25,233 bases of DNA, taken from a virus (taxonomy: Duplodnaviria; Caudoviricetes). Every line of letters starts with the position of its first letter. Position 1 is the stretch's first letter. A model generated the notes under the pieces. That model ran no database searches and was not told where the DNA came from. It saw only the letters and a list, made by a program, of their open reading frames with translations. The translations under genes were made by a program, and so were the position numbers. The stretch spans positions 1 through 25,233 of IMG/VR virus record IMGVR_UViG_3300005804_000005. One strand, written 5' to 3'. Of this stretch, positions 2,400-25,233 are shown in pieces.

Positions 2400-2879
2400 A
2401 TGGGACTGTCAGCCGAGATCGAACAAGCCATAGGCGAGGCCGCCGAGGCCGCCAACCTGCCCGTCAATCTCGTGCGGGCCGTCGTCATCACCGAGTCCGG
2501 CGGCAACCCCGCAGCCATCCGCTACGAGCCCGCATTTTACACCCGCTACATCCAGGGCAAGCCGCTCTCCTACGTCCCGGCAGGATGCTCCCGTGACACC
2601 GAGGGCATCGGCCGGGCCCACTCCTGGGGCCTCATGCAGATCATGGGCGAGACGGCCCGCTGCGTCGGCTTTCGGGGCTGGTTCCCCGATCTCTGCACCC
2701 CGGCCGTGGGCCTGCAATGGGCCTGCGCCTACCTGCGCCGGCTGGCCGACAAGTATCTGGAAAACGACGATTGGGATGTGGTGCTTCGGGCCTACAACGG
2801 CGGGCCGGGGAATCGGCACAACACGGCCAACACATACCCGGCCAAGGTCAGGGCCAATGCGGGGAGCCGAACATGGTAG
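2400..2879 (+). CDS. Endolysin, soluble lytic transglycosylase (SLT/GH23) family, 159 aa
   Basis: Catalytic ITESGG, GLMQIM and AYNGG motifs. Confidence 0.92.
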   Translation: MGLSAEIEQAIGEAAEAANLPVNLVRAVVITESGGNPAAIRYEPAFYTRYIQGKPLSYVPAGCSRDTEGIGRAHSWGLMQIMGETARCVGFRGWFPDLCTPAVGLQWACAYLRRLADKYLENDDWDVVLRAYNGGPGNRHNTANTYPAKVRANAGSRTW

Positions 2880-3175
2880 ACCTCGCCACGCTGGTCAAAG
2901 GCGCGGCCAAGTCGCGCACCCTGTATGCCGTCGCCGGCCTGCTCGGCATCAACCTCGCGGACCCGTCCGGCCTGGACATCCGCCTATGGATCAACGGCCA
3001 CATTTTCGATTTGGGCAACCTCTCGCCCATCATTTCCATAGGCCTAGCCGCTCTGGCGACCTGGGGACGGCTTAATGCAGCCGGGCCGCTGGTGGTCGAT
3101 AAATCCGTTCGTTTGTCCATGTGCGCCAACCCCGGGGCCGGAACATCCTCCGCCGGCCCTGAGGTTGGTTGCTGA
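2873..3175 (+). CDS. Putative holin / small membrane protein, 100 aa (MVDLATL...)
   Basis: GGGGAG RBS, overlaps the endolysin end, KSRT followed by hydrophobic segments and a WGRL.A..P end typical of small phage holin-like proteins. Confidence 0.6.
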   Translation: MVDLATLVKGAAKSRTLYAVAGLLGINLADPSGLDIRLWINGHIFDLGNLSPIISIGLAALATWGRLNAAGPLVVDKSVRLSMCANPGAGTSSAGPEVGC

Positions 3176-3857: not shown

Positions 3858-4385
3858 GTGGCAGGTCTGAACAAAAAGCAGGCGCAGTTCGTGAAGGAAT
3901 ACCTGATCGACCTGAATGCTACGCAAGCCTCAATCCGAGCCGGATATAGCCATAAAACGGCCGAATGGATTGGCCACCAGCTGCTCAAGAAAACTCACGT
4001 TGCTGAAGCCGTCCGTTATGAGATGGAAGCCCGAGCCAAACGCACCGAAATTTCCGCAGATCGCGTTCTGGCCGAATACGCCAAGCTTGCCTTTCTCGAT
4101 CCTCGTCGCTTCTACGACGACGATGGAAACCTCATCCCCGTACATAAACTCCCCGAGGACGTGGCCGCCGCCTTGGCCGGCATGGACGTCATAACTGAGC
4201 GCTTTGGGAAAGACGCCGATGGAAGTGCCGAGTTTGCCACCGTCCGCAAGATCAAGTTTGCGGATAAGAAAGCAGCGCTGGATTCCGTAGCTCGGCATCT
4301 TGGCATGTTTAACGACAAGATTTCGGTAGATGGCAACGTCACCGTGGAGATAGTGCGTTTTGGACAGGGTCAGGATTCCAAATAG
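3858..4385 (+). CDS. terS: Terminase small subunit, ~175 aa
   Basis: LNKKQAQFVKEYLIDLNATQASIRAGYS and KKAALDSVARHLGMF motifs. GTG start with GAGGT RBS. Confidence 0.95.
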   Translation: MAGLNKKQAQFVKEYLIDLNATQASIRAGYSHKTAEWIGHQLLKKTHVAEAVRYEMEARAKRTEISADRVLAEYAKLAFLDPRRFYDDDGNLIPVHKLPEDVAAALAGMDVITERFGKDADGSAEFATVRKIKFADKKAALDSVARHLGMFNDKISVDGNVTVEIVRFGQGQDSK

Positions 4386-5664
4386 CTGGGTTCCAAGGTC
4401 CTATCAGCTTCCGCTGTGGTCCGCCCTGGAGGGCGGCTGCAAGCGGGCTTCCGTCGTTTGGCATCGTCGCGGCGGAAAGGACTCCCTGTCCCTCAACTGG
4501 ACGGCCGTGGCTGCTCATGAGCGCGTCGGCGTCTACTGGCACATGCTCCCGACGCAGAAGCAGGCTCGCAAGGTCGTGTGGGACGGCATCGACAAGAATG
4601 GCCGGCGCATCATCGACCAGGTCTTTCCCGAGTCCATCCGGGCCGGCTCAAACGCCACGGAAATGAAGATCGAGCTCAAGTGCGGCTCAATCTGGCAGCT
4701 GTGCGGTTCGGACAACTACAACGCCCTGGTCGGCGGCAACCCTGTTGGGGTCGTCTTCTCCGAATGGTCCCTGGCTGACCCTGTCGCTTGGGATTTCATC
4801 CGCCCGATCCTGGCCGAGAACGGCGGATGGGCCATGTTCATCTTCACGCCGCGCGGCCGGAACCATGGGTGGACGCTCCACAACCTGGCAACCGCAGACC
4901 CCAAGTGGTTCGCGCAAATTCTCTCCGTCGAAGACACCGGCGCAATTCCCCTTGAAGCTGTCGAGGATGAGCGCAAGGCGGGGATGTCTGAAGAGATGAT
5001 CAACCAGGAATTCTACTGCTCGTTTGAGGCCCCCATGTTCGGGGCCTATTACGCGCAGCAGATGGCCCTGGTGGACAAAGAGAAGCGCATTTGCCGCATC
5101 CCGGTGGAACAGACCGTCCCCGTGGACACCTATTGGGACTTGGGAATGCGCGACTCCACGGCCATCTGGTTCTTCCAGCAGGTTGGGAACGAGGTCCGGG
5201 CAATCGACTACTACGAGGCCTCGGGCGAGGGTCTGGCCCATTACGTCCAGGTTCTGCAGTCCAAGGGGTACGTCTATGGCGACCATTGGGCTCCTCATGA
5301 CATCCGTGTCCGGGAGCTCGGCTCCGGCAAGTCCAGACTTGAGATGGCCCAAGCCCTTGGCCTGAAGTTCCGCGTTGTGCCCGACATTGGCCTCATGGAT
5401 GGCATCAACGCCGCGCGCGCCGTTCTTCCCAAGGTTTGGTTTGACCAGGATCGATGCTCCAGGGGCGTCGAAATACTGCGTCAGTACCGCAAGGAATGGG
5501 ACGACGAGCACAAGATTTACCGGGACAAGCCTCTTCACGACTGGACCAGCCACGGGGCGGACGCCTTCCGCATGTTCGCGGTTGGGCATCAGGACAGGGC
5601 GCTCAAAGAGCAGTTTTACGGCCAGGGTAACCGGGCCAATAGCGAATATCAGATGTTCTCGTGA
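4360..5664 (+). CDS. terL: Terminase large subunit, 434 aa
   Basis: PRSYQ Q-motif, Walker A HRRGGKD, Walker B VVFSE, FTPRG coupling motif, nuclease WDLG...D and SHGADAFR. Confidence 0.95.
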   Translation: MDRVRIPNSWVPRSYQLPLWSALEGGCKRASVVWHRRGGKDSLSLNWTAVAAHERVGVYWHMLPTQKQARKVVWDGIDKNGRRIIDQVFPESIRAGSNATEMKIELKCGSIWQLCGSDNYNALVGGNPVGVVFSEWSLADPVAWDFIRPILAENGGWAMFIFTPRGRNHGWTLHNLATADPKWFAQILSVEDTGAIPLEAVEDERKAGMSEEMINQEFYCSFEAPMFGAYYAQQMALVDKEKRICRIPVEQTVPVDTYWDLGMRDSTAIWFFQQVGNEVRAIDYYEASGEGLAHYVQVLQSKGYVYGDHWAPHDIRVRELGSGKSRLEMAQALGLKFRVVPDIGLMDGINAARAVLPKVWFDQDRCSRGVEILRQYRKEWDDEHKIYRDKPLHDWTSHGADAFRMFAVGHQDRALKEQFYGQGNRANSEYQMFS

Positions 5665-5672
5665 GGTGCGAA

Positions 5673-6176
5673 ATGGCAGGCGGTACGACAGTCAGCTTTG
5701 GAGGCGGCGGAACTGGAGCCACGGGCATGGTCGGCGGCAATTCGCTTGATCCGCTCTATTATGGCCAGAACCAGGCCAAGGTTTACAGCGATGCTCAAAG
5801 CGACCTTCCGTCAGCCCTGGCGGCCTACCAGGAGCCTGACGGGAGTTTGTCCGGGGACCTTGACCCCGAACTCGTCCAGAAGGCCATGCGCTACATCATG
5901 AACATGCCCCTGGAGAGCCAATATTACGAAACCGCTTTGGACAACAGCACGGCTGGAGGCGGTTCCAAATCAGTCAAGCCCATGAATTACACATCCAGAG
6001 AACAGATGGATTTTGTTGACCAGCACGAGACCGACAAACAAGCCTACGAAACTCTGGTGAAGGACTCCAAGAAGCGATCTTCATCTTCCTCGACGACCAG
6101 TCAAGGAACGTCTGTCCTTTCTGGTGATTCCAGCCTCACATCATTGTACCAAACCCTTCTCGGGGGAGCATCATGA
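5673..6176 (+). CDS. Hypothetical virion-associated protein, 167 aa
   Basis: GAGGTG RBS, fills the terL-to-next-gene gap, Ser-rich tail ending in QTLLGGAS. Confidence 0.65.
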   Translation: MAGGTTVSFGGGGTGATGMVGGNSLDPLYYGQNQAKVYSDAQSDLPSALAAYQEPDGSLSGDLDPELVQKAMRYIMNMPLESQYYETALDNSTAGGGSKSVKPMNYTSREQMDFVDQHETDKQAYETLVKDSKKRSSSSSTTSQGTSVLSGDSSLTSLYQTLLGGAS

Positions 6177-6817
6177 CGTCTGCATCATCGTCACCCTACC
6201 TCTATGAGCAGTCTGACCCGTTTTCTGGGGCAAACACTCAATCGGTAATGCCGGTGGTCGCATCAATGATGTCCAGTCCTCAGACGGCCATGCAAGGCAT
6301 GATGGTGCTGATGGCCGCGCAGCAGCAGGACGCTCAAACAAGCCAATACAACAGCCAGCAGACATACATGGACAGCGCCTCTGCGGCGGCGGCTCAGCAG
6401 CGAGCAGCTGCAGCCAGTGCTGCCAATTCTGCAAACTCGGCGAACGCTCAGCTTGAGGCCCGCCTGAAGGCGGCTCAGGAGGCTTCTGCCAGCGCTGAGG
6501 CTGCTCGAAACAACAAGATCGATCAGATGAAGGCCAACATGGAAGCCTTGTCGCAGAAGCAGGCTGACGAAGCCGCTGCGGCGGCTGACGAGGCGCGCAA
6601 ACAAACCGAACTCCTGGCAGCCCAGGCTGCCGAGGAAGAGAAGTCCGGCAAGGTCTCGGCCATGTATGACACCATGAATTCCACGACCGACGCCAACGCG
6701 GCGGCTGCGGACAAACGCCGCAAGCTTGCCAGCGGGCGTAAGGCGACCATCCTGACCAGCGGCCTTGGCGTTTCGGGTTCGGCCAACGTGGGGCGCAAGA
6801 CGCTCCTGGGGCAGTAA
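6173..6817 (+). CDS. Pre-portal Ala/Gln-rich virion protein (T7 gp7.3-like position), 214 aa
   Basis: Helical Ala-rich body and C-terminal RKATILTSGLG...KTLLGQ, as in proteins encoded just before the portal in BPP-1-like phages. Confidence 0.7.
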   Translation: MTSASSSPYLYEQSDPFSGANTQSVMPVVASMMSSPQTAMQGMMVLMAAQQQDAQTSQYNSQQTYMDSASAAAAQQRAAAASAANSANSANAQLEARLKAAQEASASAEAARNNKIDQMKANMEALSQKQADEAAAAADEARKQTELLAAQAAEEEKSGKVSAMYDTMNSTTDANAAAADKRRKLASGRKATILTSGLGVSGSANVGRKTLLGQ

Positions 6818-6820
6818 GCC

Positions 6821-8530
6821 ATGGACGAACGCGCGAACGCCTATCTTGAGCGTTTCGGTCAGTTGAAGACGGCCCGGCAGTCCTGGGAGCAGACATGGGA
6901 CGAGGCCATTGCCTACGTGCTGCCGCGCAAGGGGTTCGGCACTGGTAAGACGGGCAGCAAGCCGACAGACAGCAAAAAGGCCGATTCCAGCAAGATTTTC
7001 AACTCGTCGGCCACCACAGCCATTCGCCGTCTCGCTGCCGGCATGCAGTCCGGCCTGACCAGCCCTATGCGTCCCTGGTTTCGGCTGACGCTGCCTGACC
7101 CTGATCTGGCTGCCAGTGCTGCCGTCAAGGGGTGGCTGCAGGCCGTCGAGAAGCGGATGTACCTGGCTCTTGGCAAGGGCGGTTTCTATGCCGCCGTGCA
7201 CGCCCTGTTCTCGGAACTGGCTGTGTTTGGCAATGCCTGCCTGTTCGAAGGCGAGTCCGACACTACGCTTCTCAACTTTCGCCCGTTCACCATCGGCGAG
7301 TTTTACCTTGCCAGTGGGCCCGGGGGGATCATCGACACCGTGGACCGTCTGACGTGGTGGACGGCCAAGGAGATGGTCCAGGAATGGGGCAACGCCTGCC
7401 CGAAGCGTGTGCTCGATTTGGCGGTGTCCCAGCCCTACGAATACAGCCAGGTGCTCCACGTTGTTCAGCCGAGATTCGACCGCGAGTCTGGAAAGGCAGG
7501 ATCGGAAAACATGCCGTTAGAATCGGTATGGATATCCTACGAGGACAAGGAAATCCTGGCCGAAAGCGGATTTCGCACCATGCCATACATGGTGTCGCGT
7601 TGGGACACCACCGGTTCCGAGGTCTACGGACGCGGCCAGGCTGAAGACCTGATCCCAGACATCAAGATGCTGATGGAGCTTGAGAAGACCCAACTTAAAG
7701 CCCTGCACAAGACAGCTGACCCGCCGCTGTTAGCCCCGTCCACGCTCAAAATGCAGGGCATCAACACCTTCCCTGGCGGCGTAAGCTACACCGACAACGG
7801 CGGCAAAGACGCCATGGGGCCGCTGTACCAGGTCAGCTTTGATGTGAAAAACGTCCAGGCCAAGATTCAGACCCTTGAAGAGCGGATCGCGCAGGGATTC
7901 TTCAATGACGTTTTCCTCATGCTGCTCCAGCGACCGAATATGACGGCCACCGAAGTTCTGGAGCGCAGCGAGGAAAAGATTCTCATGCTCGGCCCGGTCA
8001 TCGAGCGTCAGCAAACAGAACTGCTTGATCCGGTCATTGCCAGAACTTTCGACATTTTATGGAACCAGGGACGAAACATGAACGGCGAGATTGTCAATGA
8101 AGCCGCCGTCGTCATCCCTGACCCGCCGACCGAAATACAGGGCGCACCTATCAAGGTCGAATACATCGGCCTGCTCTCTCAGGCTCAGCGCATGGCCGGC
8201 GCTGATGGCCTCAATCGTTTCTTCCAGGCAGTCGGCCCCCTCGTGCAGTTGTCTCCCGAGTCCATGGACAAGCTCAACCTGGACGAGGCCATTGATCAAT
8301 ACGCCTCGAACTACAACGTGCCGGCCGAGGTCGTGCGCGCCGACGAGGAAGTCGCGAAGTCGCGCGAAGCCCGGGCCCAGGCCCAAGCCCAGATGCAGCA
8401 GGCCGCCAACGCCCAGCAGCAGGCCCAGACAGCCCAAACCCTTGCCGGTGCCGACATGAGCAGCCCGAATGCGTTGACGGCCATGATTGCCCAGCAGCAG
8501 GGGCAGCAGCAGGGAGGGCCGACGCAATGA
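6821..8530 (+). CDS. Portal protein (head-tail connector, T7 gp8 / BPP-1 type), 569 aa
   Basis: LAAGMQSGLTSPMRPWF, RW...GSEVYGRG, MTATEVLERSEEK..MLGPV..R...E.LDP motifs and a Gln-rich C-terminus. Confidence 0.95.
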   Translation: MDERANAYLERFGQLKTARQSWEQTWDEAIAYVLPRKGFGTGKTGSKPTDSKKADSSKIFNSSATTAIRRLAAGMQSGLTSPMRPWFRLTLPDPDLAASAAVKGWLQAVEKRMYLALGKGGFYAAVHALFSELAVFGNACLFEGESDTTLLNFRPFTIGEFYLASGPGGIIDTVDRLTWWTAKEMVQEWGNACPKRVLDLAVSQPYEYSQVLHVVQPRFDRESGKAGSENMPLESVWISYEDKEILAESGFRTMPYMVSRWDTTGSEVYGRGQAEDLIPDIKMLMELEKTQLKALHKTADPPLLAPSTLKMQGINTFPGGVSYTDNGGKDAMGPLYQVSFDVKNVQAKIQTLEERIAQGFFNDVFLMLLQRPNMTATEVLERSEEKILMLGPVIERQQTELLDPVIARTFDILWNQGRNMNGEIVNEAAVVIPDPPTEIQGAPIKVEYIGLLSQAQRMAGADGLNRFFQAVGPLVQLSPESMDKLNLDEAIDQYASNYNVPAEVVRADEEVAKSREARAQAQAQMQQAANAQQQAQTAQTLAGADMSSPNALTAMIAQQQGQQQGGPTQ

Positions 8531-16294: not shown

Positions 16295-17437
16295 ATGGCT
16301 GGCGCATCGGCTGCGGCCTCTATCATCGGGACCGGCGTTTCTGTCGGTTCCTCGCTCCTCGACTCCAGCAAGTCAGACGCCGCCTCTGCCAAGGCCGAAG
16401 CGGCCCAGAAGTCGGCGGACGCCTCCTATTTCAACGCCCAGCGGGACATGCTGGACGCCGTCCGGCTGCAGAACGAATCCGACATGGAGTCGGAATTCAC
16501 GACCTTCACCTATGACCGCGAAGCGGCATGGATCGAGGCCTGGACTCCTGTTGAGGAAGCCTATCAGAAGATTTCGGTCAATCAGTCGAAGCTCTCGGCC
16601 TATCAGGACGCCGATGTCTCGGCCAAGCTGGCCGTTGACCTGGCTCTTGGGCAGGTCGGGAACATCTTCAAAACGGCCCTGTCTGAGGCGGATATTGCCA
16701 ACATGACCGCCGAGGCCAAGGCGAAATATACCGAAGCAAAAGGGCGCAGCGAGAGCAGGCAACTGGAAGCCGAGCGTGCCTACCAGCTGGACCAGATGCG
16801 GATGGAAGCCCGGCAGCAGGAAGGCGAGGTCGTGGCCAAGATTGCCAGTCAGGGCCGGGAAATGACCGGAAGCGCCCTCGATGTCATGCAAAAGTATGAC
16901 GACATCAACGGCAAGAAGGCCGCCTATCTCAAGCTCAAGGCAGGATCGCAAATATCCGACGTAGCCTTTGATGCCGGATATGATGCCGCGACAACTCGTA
17001 GATCAGGACACCTGCAAGCTCAGGAAATTATCAATGATGCCGTCAACAAGGGCGACTCTCTTATTTCCGAAGCGGAAATAAAGAATGAGGGCATCACGCA
17101 GGAATTGAACTCAAACATCAGTTTCTTGGACTCCAAGCTGGAATACAGCCTTCTTACCATGAAGACTGAATCAGAACGATCTGTCTATCTCATGAAGGAA
17201 GAGGGGTGGCGCAGCGTTTGGAACCTTGAGCAGGACACCCAGGACAGTATCTGGAGCCTGCAATATGACATGATGGACCAAATTTACGGTGGCAGCAGTT
17301 CTGCATCTGCATCGTCAAAATATGATGAACAATCATCGTCCACCGATTGGGGCTCTCTGGCTAAGGCCGGGTCAAGCCTCATGTCCGGGGTCCCGAACGT
17401 TTATTCGAGCGGGGTGAAAGCGCAATGGTGGAGTTAG
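16295..17437 (+). CDS. Internal virion / ejection protein (gp14-like, extended), 380 aa
   Basis: AGGAGGT RBS, small-residue hydrophobic N-terminus (MAGASAAASIIGTGVSVG), internal QEG...A..ASQG....GSALDV motif, amphipathic Gly/Ser C-terminus. Confidence 0.65.
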   Translation: MAGASAAASIIGTGVSVGSSLLDSSKSDAASAKAEAAQKSADASYFNAQRDMLDAVRLQNESDMESEFTTFTYDREAAWIEAWTPVEEAYQKISVNQSKLSAYQDADVSAKLAVDLALGQVGNIFKTALSEADIANMTAEAKAKYTEAKGRSESRQLEAERAYQLDQMRMEARQQEGEVVAKIASQGREMTGSALDVMQKYDDINGKKAAYLKLKAGSQISDVAFDAGYDAATTRRSGHLQAQEIINDAVNKGDSLISEAEIKNEGITQELNSNISFLDSKLEYSLLTMKTESERSVYLMKEEGWRSVWNLEQDTQDSIWSLQYDMMDQIYGGSSSASASSKYDEQSSSTDWGSLAKAGSSLMSGVPNVYSSGVKAQWWS

Positions 17438-17439
17438 GC

Positions 17440-20400
17440 ATGCTGGATGGGCAAACGGCTCAGGACGACAACTTCTGGGACGGCTACAAATCAAAGGTCG
17501 AAGACCGCCTCATCCGGGATGCCGAGCATTCCCTGGTGGACGCCGGGGCCGTGCCGCCGCCGGCCGATCCTTTCCAGACGTTCGCGCAGTCCCCGGACGG
17601 CCAGGCCGTGGCGGCCAAGGTTGAGGAGCAAAAAGCGAAGCTCTCCGTCTTTCAGCAGTCTTTCAACAAGACCGCCGAAGATCCGGCCATGCCGCAGCCC
17701 ACAGAGGCCGGAAATATCGACCTCAACAACCGGCCTGTCATCAAGAATGCCGATGGAACCATTTCCACGGTCCGCTCCATGTCCTTTAACGAAGGGAGCG
17801 GGGAAATCCTCATCCCGACCACGGCCGAAGACGGAAGCCGCATTCTTTCCGATGATGAGGCCATTCAGCAGTTCCATCAGACGGGCAAACATCTTGGGAA
17901 GTTTGCCACTCCCGAGGACGCCACGGCCTACGCGCAGCAACTCCACGAGAAGCAGTCCCAGCAGTATGGTCAGTCTCAGGACGCCCCACCTGCCTCATCT
18001 CCTTCTCGATCTCAGGCTTATGTCCCCGGCTCCATCGTCGCAAAATACGAGTCTGGAAACGATCCAGGGCTTGTCTCCACGGGAGACAAATGGGGCGATC
18101 CCGGAGGCGTGTCCTACGGTAGATACCAGCTGGCCTCGAAGACCGGGACCATGGATGCGTTCCTCAAGGCTTCTGGAGAACAGGCCCCTGGACCGGTAAA
18201 TTCTCCCGAGTTCAAGGCCTGGTGGAAAGAGCGCAGCCAAGACCCTGCGTTCAACGAAAAGCAGCATCAGTTCATCATGGACTCGCACGTTGCCCCTGTT
18301 ACCCAAAAAGCCCAGGCCATGGGCGTGGATGTCTCTTCTCCGGCCGTGCAGGAGATGTTCTACGCCATGGGCAACGCCCACGGTCCGGCTGGCGCTCAAA
18401 AGATTCTCTCCCGGGCTTTGGAAGGGACTGATCCGAAGTCGCTTTCTCCGGCCGATCTCATCCAGCGCGTTTACGCCGAGCGCATGAAGGGGTCGGGGGA
18501 ATCCCTGGAATACTGGCGGTCATCTCCGGCCAACGTCCAGGCCAGCGTCAAGAACCGACTGCGCAACGAGATGGCCGATGTCGCCGCGTTGCTGGACGGA
18601 CCGCAGGCCGGGATGCAGGCGGCAGGCTATGGCCAGGGGAAGACTTCCGGCCTCGCCACTTCTCCGGCCCGGACACCGTTCGAACAGGCAGGAGCCGCTG
18701 CGGCCAATATCTTCAGCGATGCCTGGCAGCGCACCAAGGACTACGGAAACAAGGCTCTGGGTAACACCTACGCCGGCATGGGCGGCTTCTTCCGGACCCT
18801 GGATGACCTTTCCAGTGACATCGCCACGGTCACCGGAACGGACAAGGGCGGCGTTTTCAAGGCGCTCATGGAAGAGTCCGACAAGTGGGCCGCGCACTTC
18901 AATGGCCAGGTCAAATTCGACGACTACATGACCAACGTGGTCGGCGGCATCCTGGGCAGTGCCCCAGGCATCATGGAGTTTTCCATGGGCCCGGCCTTTG
19001 CCGGCCTCAAGGGCTACGCGGAGGGAGGGCTGACCACTGCGGCGAAGTCGGCGGCGACCTGGGGCATTATGAAGGGCATCCTGCACGCCACAAATGCCTT
19101 GCCCATGTTCCTGCGTGCCCCGACGACCGGGGCGGCTTTCACCGGCCAGGCCGTGGCTGACGGCGTGACCGATCCGGGCCAGCTGGCCGAAGCCTTCGGC
19201 GTCGGAGCCGGAATGGGTCTCATGACGCCGCAAACGCGCACGCCCTGGAATGAACGCCTGCCAGGCGTCGATTACGATGCCATGACCGACGAGAATATTC
19301 TGAATCTACACCGGGCGGTGACGAACGGCGAGACCGACCTTGCCACTTACGAGGTCGGCAAGCGCCTGCTCAAGGACATCCCCGGCCTGTCAGATCGGGT
19401 TTCGGTTGAAGTCGCTCCGGCGCTCATGCTGGCAAGTAAGGAGCTTTCCAGCCAGTACGGCATCAGCGGAGAGGGCAAGATTGTCGGCAGTCATACGCCC
19501 AACGTCGAGGTTGAGCCTGGCGTTTTCCGCGACATGGTGAAGCTCTACGATGGCCATATGCCGGCCGTGGACATCCTGCATGAAGTTGGCGGCCACATCG
19601 TGGAGCGCCTGTTGCCGCAGTTCCCGAGCATCGAACAAGAACTTCTCGGCAGTTGGAAAGAGTCCGGAGCTGAAGCCAGAGGCATTGATTTCTTCGAGTT
19701 CACGGCCGACGAGGTGGCTCGATCCTACCTGCAGCAGGGTCTGTTCATGGGGCGTGGCGAAGGGTCAGCCTGGGGCGCGTTCGTTGGTCAGGTCAAGGGC
19801 GTGTTTGACCGGACCCTGGACCGCGTGGGCATGCTGCCCGAAAGCCGTGCTCCCAAGGATTTTGACCAGTTGGTGCAGCAGTCGCTGCAGGAAGGCCGGA
19901 CGTTCAAGGGGCTTGGAGCCCCTGGCCCGAAGGAAATGGAAGCCCGCGTCCGCCCCGTCGCCGAGTCCAAGAACTGGGAAGAAATCGGCAAGTGGGGATT
20001 CGGTGACGAGACCACACCTTTCGAGGTCCATGACAAGCTTCAGTCCATTGAGCCTGACGTCATCGTCAACAACCTCCCCCCGCCGCTCAAAGCCAAAAGC
20101 CTGGGCATCAACTACAGCAAGATCGAGTCCGAGGCAGACATTGCCGGCCTGATCAACAAAGTCGAAACAGCCCTGGCCCCGGACATCGACGCGGCCAGGC
20201 GTTACGAGCGCAGCCACGACACCACGTCCCAAGCCGCCGAAGACCTGGGCATGACTGAGGCTGACTTACTCAACCGCATGCGTGGCGACGGCTGGAACGC
20301 CGAGAAGACCTATGCCGCTCGCATCATCATGAACTCATCGGCCGAAGACCTGATGCGCCGGGCCAGGGAGATCAAGGAAGGCGACAACTCCGACGCCGCG

Positions 20401-22512
20401 TTGCTCGCCTTCCGACGCCGCATGGAAGTTCATGCGGCGCTGCAGGCCCATGTGGCCGGGCTGCGGGCCGAAGCCGGCCGGGCACTCAACCAGTGGAAGA
20501 TGATGGCCAGCACGCAATTTATCGACCCGCAGCTGATGGATAAGCTGACCGGCGAAGACATGGCGAAACTGACCGATCAGGCCGGCGGGCGGCGCATGAT
20601 CGAGGAGGCTGCGGCTGCCCTGGCTGATGCGTCCAAGGACGGCCCGGTCCAGGCCGGCCGGATAAACGCCGAGGTGCACAACCTGCGTCAGCGCACATTC
20701 GGGGACTGGCTGCTGGCCTACCGTTATGCGTCCATGCTGTGCGGTCCGAAAACGCATGTTGCCAACATCATGGGCAACTTCCTGGTGGCCGGCATGGCCA
20801 TCCCTGAGCGCGCCATCGCCAGCATGCTGGGCAAGGGGTTCAATAAGGCCAGGGACGTTACCGGACTAGCCTGGGGGTGGCTGTCTGATGGCAATGGCGA
20901 CGTGTCCACGCTGGAGGCCAAGGCTATGGCTTTTGCCCTGTGGCAGAACCAGGGTGACGCATTAAAACTGGCCTGGGAGGCTGCCAAGACCGGCGAGTCG
21001 ATGTTCGGCGGCAAGCAGAAGCAGGACTATCAGCCCATGTTCGGCCAGGGAGCCCCTGGCTGGATCGGCAAGATGCTTCCCGAGTCCATGAACAAGGCTG
21101 CCGACGCCTTGTGGACGGGCCTTGGCGTCCCCGGCCGGATGCTTGGAGCCGAAGACGAATATTTCAAATTCCTGGGCTACCGGCAGGAACTGGCGGCAAG
21201 GGCTTTCCGACAGGCGGCCATCGAGGGAAAGGAGGGACCAGACATCACTGCCAGGGCCAAGGAATTGATGGACCAGCCGACCGAGGAGATGAGCAAAGCG
21301 GCTCTCGATTTTGCCCGGGTGCAGACGTTTTCCCAGGACATGGGCGACACGATGTCCGCCCTTAACCGCTTCCGTAACTCCAATCTGGGACTGAAATTGG
21401 TCATGCCGTTCGTGTCCACTCCGTACAACATTCTTCAGTACAGTCTGGACAGAACTCCGGTTGCCTTTATCAAAACGAGCTTCTGGAATGATTTCCAGGC
21501 CGGAGGGGCAAAGCGTGACTTGGCCCTGGCCCGTGTGGCTCTAGGCTCCACCCTCATGGGTATGGCCGTCCAGGCAGCCGCAGCTGGGCTCATTACGGGG
21601 GACGGTCCCAGCGAACCGAAAGAGCGCGAAGCCTGGATGCGCGTCTACCAGCCAAACAGCGTCAAAGTCGGTGACACTTGGTATTCCTACGCCCGAACAG
21701 AGCCTGTCGGCACGTTGCTGTCGGCGGCGGCCAACGCTCGCATGATCATCCAGGAGTGGGATAGCGTTGGTCAGGAAAGAGACCTGCCAACCCTGACCAC
21801 TGCCTTGGCCCTAGCTGCAGCCAAAACGATCACCAGCAAGACATGGCTGCAGGGCGTTGCTGACGTTATGAACGCCATCACCTACCCAGAAGCCAAGGGC
21901 CCGAGGTTGCTGCAAGGCTTTGCGGGGTCGTTCGTCCCGGCCCTGGCCCGCGATGTTGTGGTGGAGACAGACCCCGAAGTAAAGGCCGTCTACAGTTGGA
22001 TGGATGCCATGAAATCGCGCATTCCCGGCCTGTCCGACAGCCTGCCGCCCAAGCGAGACATCTGGGGTGACCCCTACCAAGTCCACGCCGCCGGCGAGGG
22101 CATCTATCTGGGCTGGCTCTCCCCGATCAAAGTCAAGACCGGCGACGTGGCCGCTATCGACCATGAGCTGCTTCGGCTGGAATGGGGTCCTTCCATGCCG
22201 AAACGCACACAGTCGTTGCAAGGGGTTTCCGTCGAGCTCACGCCGCAGGAGTTTGATCGGATGATTGAGCTTTCGACTCAGGTCATCCGAAAGCCAGGCG
22301 AGGATGGCGTTGGCCGTTCCATGAAGGCCAACCTTGAACGGATTATTAAGACCCCAGGATATAAGCGCCAGGACGACGAGCAGAAGAAACAGACCATCCT
22401 GCGCGAAATCCAGATATACCGCCAAGCGGCTCAAATCCGTCTCATCAAGGAAAACCCACGACTGCAGGCGCTGATAACCATCGGCCTGCGTGAGAGAGGG
22501 AGAACCCAGTAA
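17440..22512 (+). CDS. Large multidomain ejection protein (gp16-like) with lysozyme-like domain, ~1690 aa
   Basis: Longest ORF in the window. KYESG...D.GG.SYG.YQL muramidase-like motif, HEVGGH motif, C-terminal PF..TP.NI / SY.R.EP / PKRDIWG motifs. Start at 17440 (GGAG RBS) preferred over 17425. Confidence 0.85.
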   Translation: MLDGQTAQDDNFWDGYKSKVEDRLIRDAEHSLVDAGAVPPPADPFQTFAQSPDGQAVAAKVEEQKAKLSVFQQSFNKTAEDPAMPQPTEAGNIDLNNRPVIKNADGTISTVRSMSFNEGSGEILIPTTAEDGSRILSDDEAIQQFHQTGKHLGKFATPEDATAYAQQLHEKQSQQYGQSQDAPPASSPSRSQAYVPGSIVAKYESGNDPGLVSTGDKWGDPGGVSYGRYQLASKTGTMDAFLKASGEQAPGPVNSPEFKAWWKERSQDPAFNEKQHQFIMDSHVAPVTQKAQAMGVDVSSPAVQEMFYAMGNAHGPAGAQKILSRALEGTDPKSLSPADLIQRVYAERMKGSGESLEYWRSSPANVQASVKNRLRNEMADVAALLDGPQAGMQAAGYGQGKTSGLATSPARTPFEQAGAAAANIFSDAWQRTKDYGNKALGNTYAGMGGFFRTLDDLSSDIATVTGTDKGGVFKALMEESDKWAAHFNGQVKFDDYMTNVVGGILGSAPGIMEFSMGPAFAGLKGYAEGGLTTAAKSAATWGIMKGILHATNALPMFLRAPTTGAAFTGQAVADGVTDPGQLAEAFGVGAGMGLMTPQTRTPWNERLPGVDYDAMTDENILNLHRAVTNGETDLATYEVGKRLLKDIPGLSDRVSVEVAPALMLASKELSSQYGISGEGKIVGSHTPNVEVEPGVFRDMVKLYDGHMPAVDILHEVGGHIVERLLPQFPSIEQELLGSWKESGAEARGIDFFEFTADEVARSYLQQGLFMGRGEGSAWGAFVGQVKGVFDRTLDRVGMLPESRAPKDFDQLVQQSLQEGRTFKGLGAPGPKEMEARVRPVAESKNWEEIGKWGFGDETTPFEVHDKLQSIEPDVIVNNLPPPLKAKSLGINYSKIESEADIAGLINKVETALAPDIDAARRYERSHDTTSQAAEDLGMTEADLLNRMRGDGWNAEKTYAARIIMNSSAEDLMRRAREIKEGDNSDAALLAFRRRMEVHAALQAHVAGLRAEAGRALNQWKMMASTQFIDPQLMDKLTGEDMAKLTDQAGGRRMIEEAAAALADASKDGPVQAGRINAEVHNLRQRTFGDWLLAYRYASMLCGPKTHVANIMGNFLVAGMAIPERAIASMLGKGFNKARDVTGLAWGWLSDGNGDVSTLEAKAMAFALWQNQGDALKLAWEAAKTGESMFGGKQKQDYQPMFGQGAPGWIGKMLPESMNKAADALWTGLGVPGRMLGAEDEYFKFLGYRQELAARAFRQAAIEGKEGPDITARAKELMDQPTEEMSKAALDFARVQTFSQDMGDTMSALNRFRNSNLGLKLVMPFVSTPYNILQYSLDRTPVAFIKTSFWNDFQAGGAKRDLALARVALGSTLMGMAVQAAAAGLITGDGPSEPKEREAWMRVYQPNSVKVGDTWYSYARTEPVGTLLSAAANARMIIQEWDSVGQERDLPTLTTALALAAAKTITSKTWLQGVADVMNAITYPEAKGPRLLQGFAGSFVPALARDVVVETDPEVKAVYSWMDAMKSRIPGLSDSLPPKRDIWGDPYQVHAAGEGIYLGWLSPIKVKTGDVAAIDHELLRLEWGPSMPKRTQSLQGVSVELTPQEFDRMIELSTQVIRKPGEDGVGRSMKANLERIIKTPGYKRQDDEQKKQTILREIQIYRQAAQIRLIKENPRLQALITIGLRERGRTQ

Positions 22513-23430
22513 ATGACCATCGAATCCACGACGAACAAGGTCCTGTATTCCGGGACTGGCGGGCAGGTGGCGTTCCCGTACAGCTTTCGCATCTTCGAGG
22601 CTGCCGACATGGTTGTCATCCTCTTGGATGCCGAGGGCGTTGAGACGCCGCTTACGCTGAACACGGACTTCGCGGTTTCTGGCGTGGGAGATATCGGGGG
22701 AGGGACCGTTACCCTCATCGGTGATTATGCAGTTTCCGGAAGCAAAGGGCCTCCTCCAATCGGGGAGAAGATTTTGCTCAAGCGCGTGCTGCAACTCAAG
22801 CAGGAAACGGACTACACCGAAGGGGGGGCCTTCCCGGCTGAATCGCATGAAGCCGCTCTGGATCGCCTGGTTTGCATTTCACAGCAGATACAGGAGCAGT
22901 TGGACAGGTCGATCAAGGTTACCGAAACAAACACGGAAACCCCGATGTCGGCCGAGGACATCCTTGATGCGGTTGGCGACCTGGAAACAGCCACCGCTGC
23001 CGCGCAGCAGGCTTCCGTGAGCGCGGCGGAAGCGAAGGCTGACGCGGAACAAGTCGCCGCTGACAGGATCGCATGCGATGCCAATTCCGCTGCCACGGAC
23101 CTGGCCAAAGGTATTGCCGTTGCCTCCGCCAGCGCCGCCCAGGGCTACGCCACATCGGCCGGGGCCAACAGCGCGGCCCCGGCCTGGTCCCCGGTGACCT
23201 CCTATAGCTTCCCGGACATCACGGCATACACCGATGGCAATACCTACCGGTGCACCGGCGCCGACATCGTAGGCGAGGCCCCTGACACCTCGGCCAATTG
23301 GGTCAGGCTGACCACGCGCATGACGGATTTTTTTGACCTGGATGACGGCGGCGACCTGATGCCGGCCGTTACCCCCGGTTACAGCGTCGAATTCGAATTG
23401 GACGTCAATGGCGACGTCCAGCCCAGATAA
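22513..23430 (+). CDS. Tail fibre / fibre adaptor with T7 gp17-like N-terminal attachment domain, 305 aa
   Basis: YSG.G....FPYSFRIF...D, Q.TDY..GG.FPAESHE.ALDRL, Ala-rich coil, then an AW.....Y...D.....G.TYRC module. Confidence 0.85.
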   Translation: MTIESTTNKVLYSGTGGQVAFPYSFRIFEAADMVVILLDAEGVETPLTLNTDFAVSGVGDIGGGTVTLIGDYAVSGSKGPPPIGEKILLKRVLQLKQETDYTEGGAFPAESHEAALDRLVCISQQIQEQLDRSIKVTETNTETPMSAEDILDAVGDLETATAAAQQASVSAAEAKADAEQVAADRIACDANSAATDLAKGIAVASASAAQGYATSAGANSAAPAWSPVTSYSFPDITAYTDGNTYRCTGADIVGEAPDTSANWVRLTTRMTDFFDLDDGGDLMPAVTPGYSVEFELDVNGDVQPR

Positions 23431-23439
23431 GGAGAATCC

Positions 23440-24969
23440 ATGGCGACCAAGAACATTGTCCCCAGGGCAAATGGTGAAGGCGGCATCGGGACCAGCGCCA
23501 AGCGATGGCTGAATGCCTTCTTTCAGAACCTTAACGGGTTGCCCGTGAGCTCCACCGGTGCGGCCACGGAAACCGCCTCCGGGCTGGTGGAGCTTTCCAC
23601 CAGCGAAGAGGCCGTGGCCGGTACCGACGCGCTTAGGGCCGTCACCCCGGCCGGGCTAAGCGCGGTGGCCACGATATGGAAGGGACCTGTCGTCTCCACT
23701 TATGCGACCGCGACCACCTTATTGGTGAGCACGGATGATGCCGCCAAGCTGACTTCGGGCATGCGCGTCAAGGCCGACTGTGGCGCTGACGGGACAAAGT
23801 ATGGGCTGGTCTCGGGCATCGCCGGGCAGACGATCACGCTGACGATGGACACGGGGCACACGCTGACGGCCAACCTCGTGCAGGTTTGGTATTCCACCCG
23901 CATCCCGACGCCGGCTGACGTCGGCGCAATGGCTCTCTCCGCAAATATCAATACCCCGGGTATTTTCTCCAGGGATATCCGGTTTGCTGCCAAAACTGTT
24001 TCGGTCGCGGCGGACAGATACATAATTTTGAGCCCGAACAGGATGCTGGTTGATGTCAACGGCACGGCTCTGGCTTTGGCCGCGCAGCAGGCCCTAGACC
24101 TGTCCTTGGCCGCCACATGGGACAGCGTGACCACCGACTATCGCGTGGCCGCCGCCCGGGCAGGCAAGGACTTCTACGTCTACGCCTGCATCAACTCCGG
24201 TTCGCTGAAGCTGCTGGTGTCCGCCAATGCCACATACCCCAGCGGCTTTGATGCCACGACCTCCCGCAAGATCGCCGGCTTCCACTGCCTCTGTGCTGCG
24301 GTCGGCACGATCAGTGGGCACACTCTTTCCGGCTACCTGGCCGGCGACATCCTCCCCGCGTCGGTGTGGGACCTCAAGCACCGCCCCGTCTGCACCCCGG
24401 AGGGCATGGTCTACGTGGATGGTCTCGGGAAGTGGGTGGACATCTACCTGGCGTCGGTAAGCGGCGGCAAGTTGGTGTCGGCCTACAACGCCACCTGTGC
24501 CGATGGGGCCAGCGCCACGCTGTTCGACTGGTACGACTTCAGCGAGTGGTTGGGCCGTATAGGCAAACGGCTCCCATTCCAATCCGAGTTCATGGCCGCT
24601 GCTGTTGGCTCAAATGAAGGGACCAACATTGCCGGCTCTGCCGATCCTGGAACGACCGGAGGGAAAACCGACACTGCCGGCCGGCGGATGATTTCCCATG
24701 CTGGCGTGGAAGATTGTTGCGGCAACCTCTGGCAATGGGGGATCGAGGCTGGAGCCGTGGCCGGGACGGCGGCCTACAAAGACCAATTCGTGGCTGGCCG
24801 GACAACACAGCGAGGACAAGGCTACAATGAGCCGACCCGTGCGCTCTTGGGCGGCGATTGGACTAATGGGGCGTATTGCGGCTCGCGCGGTTCGTCTTGG
24901 TCTGACGGTCCGCTGGCTCTGCGTTCGATTTGCGGTGCGCGCGGGGTCGCGGAGCCGTTGGCCGCATAG
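23440..24969 (+). CDS. mtd: Mtd-like receptor-binding (tropism determinant) protein with C-terminal CLec-fold domain, DGR target, 509 aa
   Basis: AGGAG RBS, tail-fibre repeat ATE...GLVEL....E...GTD..RAVTP, PEGMV...WVDIYLAS, GVEDCCGNLWQW and RALLGGDW...CGSR motifs. The VR encodes nearly all of the last ~43 codons. Confidence 0.9.
   Translation: MATKNIVPRANGEGGIGTSAKRWLNAFFQNLNGLPVSSTGAATETASGLVELSTSEEAVAGTDALRAVTPAGLSAVATIWKGPVVSTYATATTLLVSTDDAAKLTSGMRVKADCGADGTKYGLVSGIAGQTITLTMDTGHTLTANLVQVWYSTRIPTPADVGAMALSANINTPGIFSRDIRFAAKTVSVAADRYIILSPNRMLVDVNGTALALAAQQALDLSLAATWDSVTTDYRVAAARAGKDFYVYACINSGSLKLLVSANATYPSGFDATTSRKIAGFHCLCAAVGTISGHTLSGYLAGDILPASVWDLKHRPVCTPEGMVYVDGLGKWVDIYLASVSGGKLVSAYNATCADGASATLFDWYDFSEWLGRIGKRLPFQSEFMAAAVGSNEGTNIAGSADPGTTGGKTDTAGRRMISHAGVEDCCGNLWQWGIEAGAVAGTAAYKDQFVAGRTTQRGQGYNEPTRALLGGDWTNGAYCGSRGSSWSDGPLALRSICGARGVAEPLAA
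24836..24956 (+). repeat. DGR variable repeat (VR)
   Basis: 121-bp ungapped match to 25020-25140, 20 mismatches all opposite A in the other copy, located at the 3' end of the Mtd-like CDS. Confidence 0.96.
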
Positions 24970-25019
24970 CGACGCTCCGCAACGCGTATTGCTCCGCGAT
25001 TATTTGGCTGGTGCGTCTC

Positions 25020-25140
25020 CCCGTGCGATCTTGGGCGGCAATTGGAATAATGGAGCGTATTGCGGCTCGCGCAGTTCGAATTGGAATAACAGTCCGCTGA
25101 ATCTGAATTCGAATTACGGTGCGCACGGGGTCACGGAGAC
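25020..25140 (+). repeat. DGR template repeat (TR)
   Basis: Intergenic A-rich copy of the VR with 28 adenines and nine AAY codons (8 AAT, 1 AAC) in the target reading frame. Confidence 0.96.
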
Positions 25141-25233
25141 TGGGGCGGGCCAAAAACTCCAGGCTGGACGCATCAACCATGTCCGGTAGGCCGTAAGGCC
25201 GAAAGGCAAAACACACGACGGAGGGGACGGGGA

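Follow-up and report, generated by a model that had tools for sequence, protein, structure and literature searches.

In a diversity-generating retroelement (DGR), RNA of the template repeat (TR) and the spacer (Sp) is copied into cDNA by reverse transcription that makes errors at adenines, and this cDNA takes the place of the variable repeat (VR), as described for phage BPP-1. The BPP-1 cassette has the order mtd-VR, avd, TR, Sp, brt, with a 128-aa Avd encoded between VR and TR, and its reverse transcriptase (RT) is reported to operate in complex with Avd (10.1101/2023.10.23.563531). In the survey by Wu et al. 2018 (PMC5758913), avd is present in 275 of 372 DGRs, and an Avd-independent mechanism is said to have to exist. 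That survey describes TG-TR-RT cassettes without avd as Architecture A1 ("no accessory gene") and Lineage 3, lists the archaeal virus ANMV-1 as A1, and mentions a gene named PAG1 in 3 DGRs of Lineage 3, an association it calls tenuous and presents without fold or function. A further paper places crAssphage LMMB in Lineage 3 (PMC7290462). DGRs that mutate a phage receptor-binding protein and Avd-less TG-TR-RT cassettes are thus both already known. An OB-fold helper for DGRs was not found in the open-access papers and bioRxiv texts searched.

The window analyzed here is a 25,233-nt stretch of viral DNA, a contig that is also the whole assembly. Its genes form a set of late genes (terminase small subunit, head-tail connector, Bbp19, GP7-type capsid, Bbp16, tail, and internal virion proteins), and the phage is a BPP-1-like podovirus, with related podovirus genes (Bbp16, Bbp19, and the GP7-type capsid) and an Mtd-homologous target that carries VR at its C terminus. 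The target product matches Pfam mtd_2nd (E 1.4e-18) and the tail protein family PHROG 11262 (E 7.8e-71), and its residues 229 to 507 match the solved BPP-1 Mtd structures 1yu0 to 1yu4 (phmmer, best E 1.7e-32). These sequence matches support homology with the Mtd receptor-binding protein of BPP-1 and uphold the claim of an earlier note on this DNA that the target is receptor-binding. Several of the named target homologs belong to Desulfovibrio and Solidesulfovibrio, a weak hint at the host. Elsewhere in the window, no terminase large subunit was recognized between the small subunit and the connector (4360-6817), an interval that includes a 434-aa ORF whose sole match is PHROG 2472, of unknown function. 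The 1,695-aa internal virion protein (17425-22512) has a VgrG3-like C-terminal domain at residues 202 to 382, which we take to be of the lysozyme type. The features of the cassette and its upstream neighbor are given in Table 1.

Table 1. Positions in the window of the DGR features and of the gene upstream of the target
Feature	Coordinates	Strand	Basis or content
Tail-fibre adaptor-like gene, upstream neighbor	22513..23430	+	PHROG tail and tail-fibre N-terminal matches; same place as BPP-1 bbp9
Target gene, 509 aa, Mtd-like receptor-binding tail protein, VR at C terminus	23440..24969	+	Pfam/PHROG/phmmer
Variable repeat (VR)	24836..24956	+	Repeat alignment; 3' end GC-rich, likely IMH (putative boundary)
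VR-TR gap, 63 nt	24957..25019	+	Holds target stop 24967-24969; 25006-25017, upstream duplex arm
Template repeat (TR)	25020..25140	+	28 adenines, 9 AAY codons
Spacer RNA (Sp), 5' 93 nt	25141..25233	+	Cut by contig end; 25167-25178, downstream duplex arm

VR and TR, the sole long direct repeat of the window, align without gaps over 121 bp at an offset of 184 with 20 mismatches. All 20 fall on an A of the downstream copy, TR (10 A>G, 7 A>C, and 3 A>T), and differences are found at 0 of the 93 non-A positions; the hypergeometric probability that every mismatch falls on one of the 28 A is 8.8e-17. The realignment, including its check for mismatches at non-A template positions, thus reproduced what the earlier note had described, as it did the translations given there for template and gene, which differ at 14 residues. 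The statement that no template codon can be turned into a stop by A substitution was also correct (0 of the 18 A-containing TR codons). The proposed ceiling of 4^28 variants stands for DNA (7.2e16 sequences), but the amino-acid ceiling is about 2.5e15. The range realized by VR is lower still, because the Arg of a GARG motif is kept where TR reads His, both in the window and in 8 of the 8 homolog tails listed. The GC-rich end of VR departs from TR past 24954. The idea of a stable hairpin after VR gained no support, folding 3' of VR being not beyond shuffles (z -0.16 to -0.34) and the only inverted repeats found having long loops; in this the cassette may differ from that of BPP-1. With its A-only VR/TR differences, its Mtd-type target, and an RT just past TR in the relative L001, the cassette resembles that of BPP-1, and the DGR reading held. 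The window contains the target, VR, and TR part of a genuine DGR of a known kind, and of this we have practically no doubt. Here too, if BPP-1 is a guide, TR-Sp RNA would be copied with errors at A and the cDNA would replace VR, rewriting the binding site of the Mtd-type tail protein. By the same analogy, the DGR likely lets the phage switch host receptors.

No match to RT, orfX (the small gene described below), or PAG1 was found within the window. The target of L001 is 80% identical to the window target and has the same VR-TR offset; the two TRs show 5 differences over 120 nt, and TR and Sp are well conserved between them. In L001, 138 nt past TR, lies the gene for a 349-aa RT with YCDD and GNYTSQ motifs, which has 36.6% identity with BPP-1 Brt (E 2e-48) but differs from it in motif, BPP-1 having YMDD. 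The window end corresponds to L001 position 7867 and the L001 RT starts at 7912, about 45 nt beyond the window end. We also placed on L001 the contigs of run X1, which is the likely source of the window phage and hence is not independent evidence. Here, overlaps of 30 nt link the phage contig (22,493 nt, depth 12.2), a bubble of 146 nt, a piece of 65 nt (depth 19.6), and a contig of 2,221 nt (depth 13.8) that covers RT and the next two genes, including orfX. Compared with L001, the 2,221-nt contig has 263 differences and 6 gaps, with a net length change of zero (2055 on 2055 letters). The search past position 25233 for an RT in cis, suggested in the earlier note, thus led to a YCDD RT right after the same TR in L001 and in graph-linked X1 contigs. 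Judged from the L001 and X1 alignment, in which the X1 contig was placed with its letters unread, the RT of the window phage is likely intact. A second element in the same sample, a 25,868-nt X1 contig, matches Sp and the YCDD region of L001 and is probably another DGR of the same group; because it matches the same spacer, it probably accounts for the contig break near RT. Inspected by eye, the end of the L001 contig (10020-10097) resembles the 3' portion of a tRNA, a possible attachment site; ARAGORN gave none.

A predicted 12-pair duplex brackets TR, with one arm just upstream and the other about 27 nt downstream. The helix was picked by eye; in 10 aligned loci, 94% of cells pair, both partners have changed in 8 of the 12 pairs, and none of 500 shuffles scored as high. 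An automatic check was then run on 73 loci, and in 53 of them a locus's own duplex arms beat at least 90% of foreign arms. There is also a covarying 3' spacer stem, most of which lies past the window end. For the window alone, its own duplex is not significant (shuffle p 0.14), and single-sequence Sp folds are not beyond shuffles. Structured RNA around TR is supported at the level of the family, as a predicted bracketing duplex and Sp stems; the duplex resembles the cPRT Stop of BPP-1, as presented for that element (10.1101/2023.10.23.563531). Like the cPRT Stop, the covarying duplex may set the cDNA end.

The earlier note had also expected Avd, and this expectation failed. A gap of just 63 nt leaves no room for an Avd gene between VR and TR, in contrast to BPP-1. 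Pfam bAvd (PF22296) had no match in the whole records of L001 (68% complete), L004, ANMV-1, and vir525, two of these records being incomplete, nor in any of 103 representative neighboring ORFs, while the BPP-1 control matched in both searches. Another small gene, orfX, lies behind the RT in L001, a further difference from BPP-1. It is a gene of about 97 aa that overlaps the RT stop, and the L001 copy is a 99-aa ORF. An ORF spanning TR in L001 (7637-7906) was rejected as Avd, being the open frame of the template and having no bAvd match. The same holds for an annotated 64-aa ORF in the target-RT interval of ANMV-1 (L282:2711-2905), which overlaps TR (start 2694), is the TR open frame, and has no bAvd match. 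A figure legend of Paul et al. 2015 (PMC4372165) marks an Avd ORF in ANMV-1. CH1, MSL, and HRDC were rejected as partners: in Wu et al. 2018 (PMC5758913), CH1 is 160 to 169 aa and acidic and MSL co-occurs with avd, both unlike orfX, with CH1 judged by description. PAG2 to PAG4 were set aside as relatives because they are unlike orfX by eye. In L022 (6863-7485), there is an additional partial repeat between VR and TR, with three related copies.

The target recovered 50 loci, and an RT is present in 25 of them; within these 25, every one of the 20 that lack Avd has orfX, and none of the 5 that carry Avd does (near-duplicates included). A search with orfX yielded a set of 110 loci (the best 80 of 188 viral loci plus all 30 genomic ones, some of which repeat contigs of the target search). 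RT is present in 102 of these 110, with YCDD in 95. In the 102 loci drawn from this best-80-plus-30 set, orfX lies within 100 nt of RT in 81, behind one inserted gene in 19, and between VR and TR in 2, the place of Avd in BPP-1; the remaining 8 of the 110 comprise 4 that are cut short and 4 that are without RT by loss. Bacteroides phage Versailles has the RT-orfX layout with one inserted gene. In the archaeal viruses ANMV-1 (Paul et al. 2015, PMC4372165) and vir525, orfX directly follows RT (E 6e-16 and 9e-24) and bAvd has no match, as in L001. Across bacterial and archaeal hosts, orfX accompanies two different target C-terminal classes, and in no locus examined does it occur together with Avd. 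Two other families of about 100 to 110 aa, orfY (L004:9102-9413) and orfZ (L088:3694-4020), lie beside these cassettes in 62 and 17 loci. Because they also recur beside RT, adjacency to RT by itself proves little; related elements share neighbors by descent, which limits the weight of the orfX-RT adjacency. We rejected orfY as a helper, since it stays in the RT-less loci L009, L014, L015, and L016 and is more likely tail-linked.

Pfam searches with 76 orfX members gave nothing above E 0.004, the Pfam SSB families were without a sequence match among the 25 families listed out of 27, and a sequence search against PDB returned nothing significant. The structural model of orfX is a beta-barrel (pLDDT 86.9). 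Among solved structures, OB domains and SSBs come nearest to it, with modest scores (best Z 7.1, rmsd 2.9, 69 aligned), and a Foldseek search of PDB had no hit at E <= 0.001. We describe orfX as a predicted OB-fold, SSB-like protein, and a Z under 8 may mean just a common barrel. The likeness to phi29/tectivirus-type and bacterial ssDNA-binding OB-fold proteins consists of the predicted barrel and repeated weak structural matches; the context of orfX differs, being an RT cassette rather than replication genes. The median pI of orfX is 8.7. Among viral proteins, its best structural matches contain an RT (E 3.6e-7 and 9e-6), which suggests fusion to RT; these two also rank highest for the PAG1 model.

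Profile comparison links orfX to PAG1 with a score of 26.1 (shuffled maximum 18.0; E 5e-4) and to the C-terminal tails of crAss-like RTs with a score of 23.1 (shuffled maximum 16.6, thumb control 9.6), although both links are weak by hhalign probability (32% and 20%). PAG1 against the tails scored 14.7, below shuffles (15.8). The tails are about 70 extra C-terminal residues in the RTs of LMMB, L303, cr7_1, and cr55_1, and an alignment of 11 tails, of which 8 are near-copies, matches orfX over its whole length with a score higher than any of 60 shuffles. The gene L236:4718-5086 bridges orfX and PAG1; in L236, a PAG1 gene precedes TR (2791-3114) and this intermediate gene lies past RT. PAG1 turned out to be common: 120 loci were recovered by a motif scan, and where flanks were present (80 loci), 77 contain an RT. 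In 69 of 72 loci, PAG1 lies between VR and TR, beside YADD RTs. That position and that RT motif distinguish PAG1 from orfX, which mostly overlaps the RT stop, whereas the two are alike in size, in the order of predicted secondary structure, and in occurring without Avd. Profile, bridge, and fold consistently support a remote homology between them.

We built an RT tree of 54 rows, 6 of the 60 chosen loci having been dropped because they had no full frame; it includes just 3 Avd rows and does not contain the reference RT set of Wu et al. On one side of a 99/97 branch are 50 rows, whether they have orfX, PAG1, a tail, or none of these. L001 is on this side together with crAssphage LMMB and the PAG1 RTs, in a separate 100/99 subclade of 17 rows that is sister to the group of those RTs. 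The ANMV-1 RT groups apart from that of L001, with the 3 Avd rows. Given the small number of Avd rows, a single origin cannot be read from this tree. In order and in lack of avd, the cassette corresponds to the Architecture A1 and Lineage 3 of Wu et al. 2018 (PMC5758913). It differs from the Lineage 3 rows examined, which are CLec3, in that the target is an Mtd homolog, and from the A1 description in that orfX is an overlooked candidate accessory gene in this cassette type.

Between the VRs of the window and of L001 there are 15 differing sites, and homing has run in their lineage, because 13 of these sites are at template adenines and the other 2 are mirror changes that track differences between the two TRs. 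The earlier note had taken the perfect non-A identity as a sign of current or recent activity; of this, past homing in the lineage stands, whereas the X1 contigs gave a single VR contig with 0 other letters, and contigs drop rare variants. The invariant VR among X1 contigs would also fit a cassette that became frozen only recently, a relic whose RT is damaged, as would the 6 alignment gaps against L001 in the X1 RT contig and the frequency of deleted derivatives among relatives (L005, L014, L115, L135, L158, and L160). Against such a relic, no drift has accumulated at the non-A positions, the contig covering RT and orfX keeps its length relative to L001 and has a matching depth, and TR and Sp have stayed well conserved; we consider a relic very unlikely. 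The 3' half of TR and the spacer (window 25079-25224) are covered in X1 by two variant contigs (depths 5.9 and 9.9), with 8 and 1 differences relative to the window, so this sample may contain more than one form of the template region itself. Runs X2, X3, and X5 hold relatives of the window phage. In seven relatives (the six named above and L118), deletion derivatives without TR and/or RT have kept the target, and such a loss would freeze one receptor specificity.

For the cassettes that retain an RT, our proposal is that orfX joins the RT-RNA complex, where it would grip single-stranded Sp RNA or nascent cDNA and give the support that Avd supplies in BPP-1. That orfX is a DGR component at all seems probable to us; that it acts on the RT complex in place of Avd, as a candidate helper, we hold to be an even chance. 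These DGRs might instead need no protein helper, with orfX being a gene for tail-fibre assembly or for some other phage function, carried along with the tail module as orfY and orfZ would be. Three crAss-like DGRs inside the same RT group (cr52_1, cr50_1, and cr6_1) fit this account, having no Avd, orfX, or RT tail and no PAG1 in a search that had no positive control. It also fits that the whole orfX outlives TR and RT in L115 and L118, which have the same genes, and in L158, that every target examined resembles a tail protein, and that Wu et al. 2018 (PMC5758913) caution that PAG genes are possibly phage genes. A mere passenger of the tail module is harder to reconcile with the shifting position of orfX within the cassette (after RT, in the VR-TR interval, or in apparent RT fusion), its exclusion of Avd in the loci examined, its occurrence with two target C-terminal classes in both bacterial and archaeal hosts, and its absence along with RT from L009, L014, L015, and L016, where target and orfY remain. 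We regard the account without a helper as unlikely. A role after reverse transcription, in which orfX is a DGR component that coats free single-stranded cDNA and aids its pairing with VR at the replication fork, and so does not do the job of Avd, is in our estimate similarly improbable. The next-best structural matches of the orfX model point toward it, being phage and bacterial ssDNA-binding proteins, with one Atlas cluster carrying Phi29_Phage_SSB on 44% of its members (score 0.92). So do findings on reconstituted BPP-1, in which homing is reported to be inhibited by ExoI, with its nuclease activity dispensable, and the lagging-strand orientation is favored (PMC12875486). Yet the mutual exclusion with Avd suggests that both act at the same step, and the apparent fusion to the RT C terminus suggests action at RT, though a fused domain could pass on cDNA.

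Returning to orfX as a helper of RT, it may be one form of a wider family. The chances seem to us evenly balanced that a single OB-fold helper occurs in three guises (orfX behind RT, PAG1 in the place of Avd, and a domain fused to RT) across the large "no accessory gene" branch of DGRs, which would take in viruses of sulfate reducers and methanogens, gut crAss-like phages, and ANMV-1. With a helper candidate named, the question of Avd independence can be tested directly, and the present cassette suits such a test well: its phage and target are like those of BPP-1, but its proposed helper is another. Tools for targeted mutagenesis would also profit from a compact or single-chain DGR. If the three-guise proposal is true, the branch would represent a second DGR reverse-transcription machine, and its fused form would be a one-protein hypermutator.
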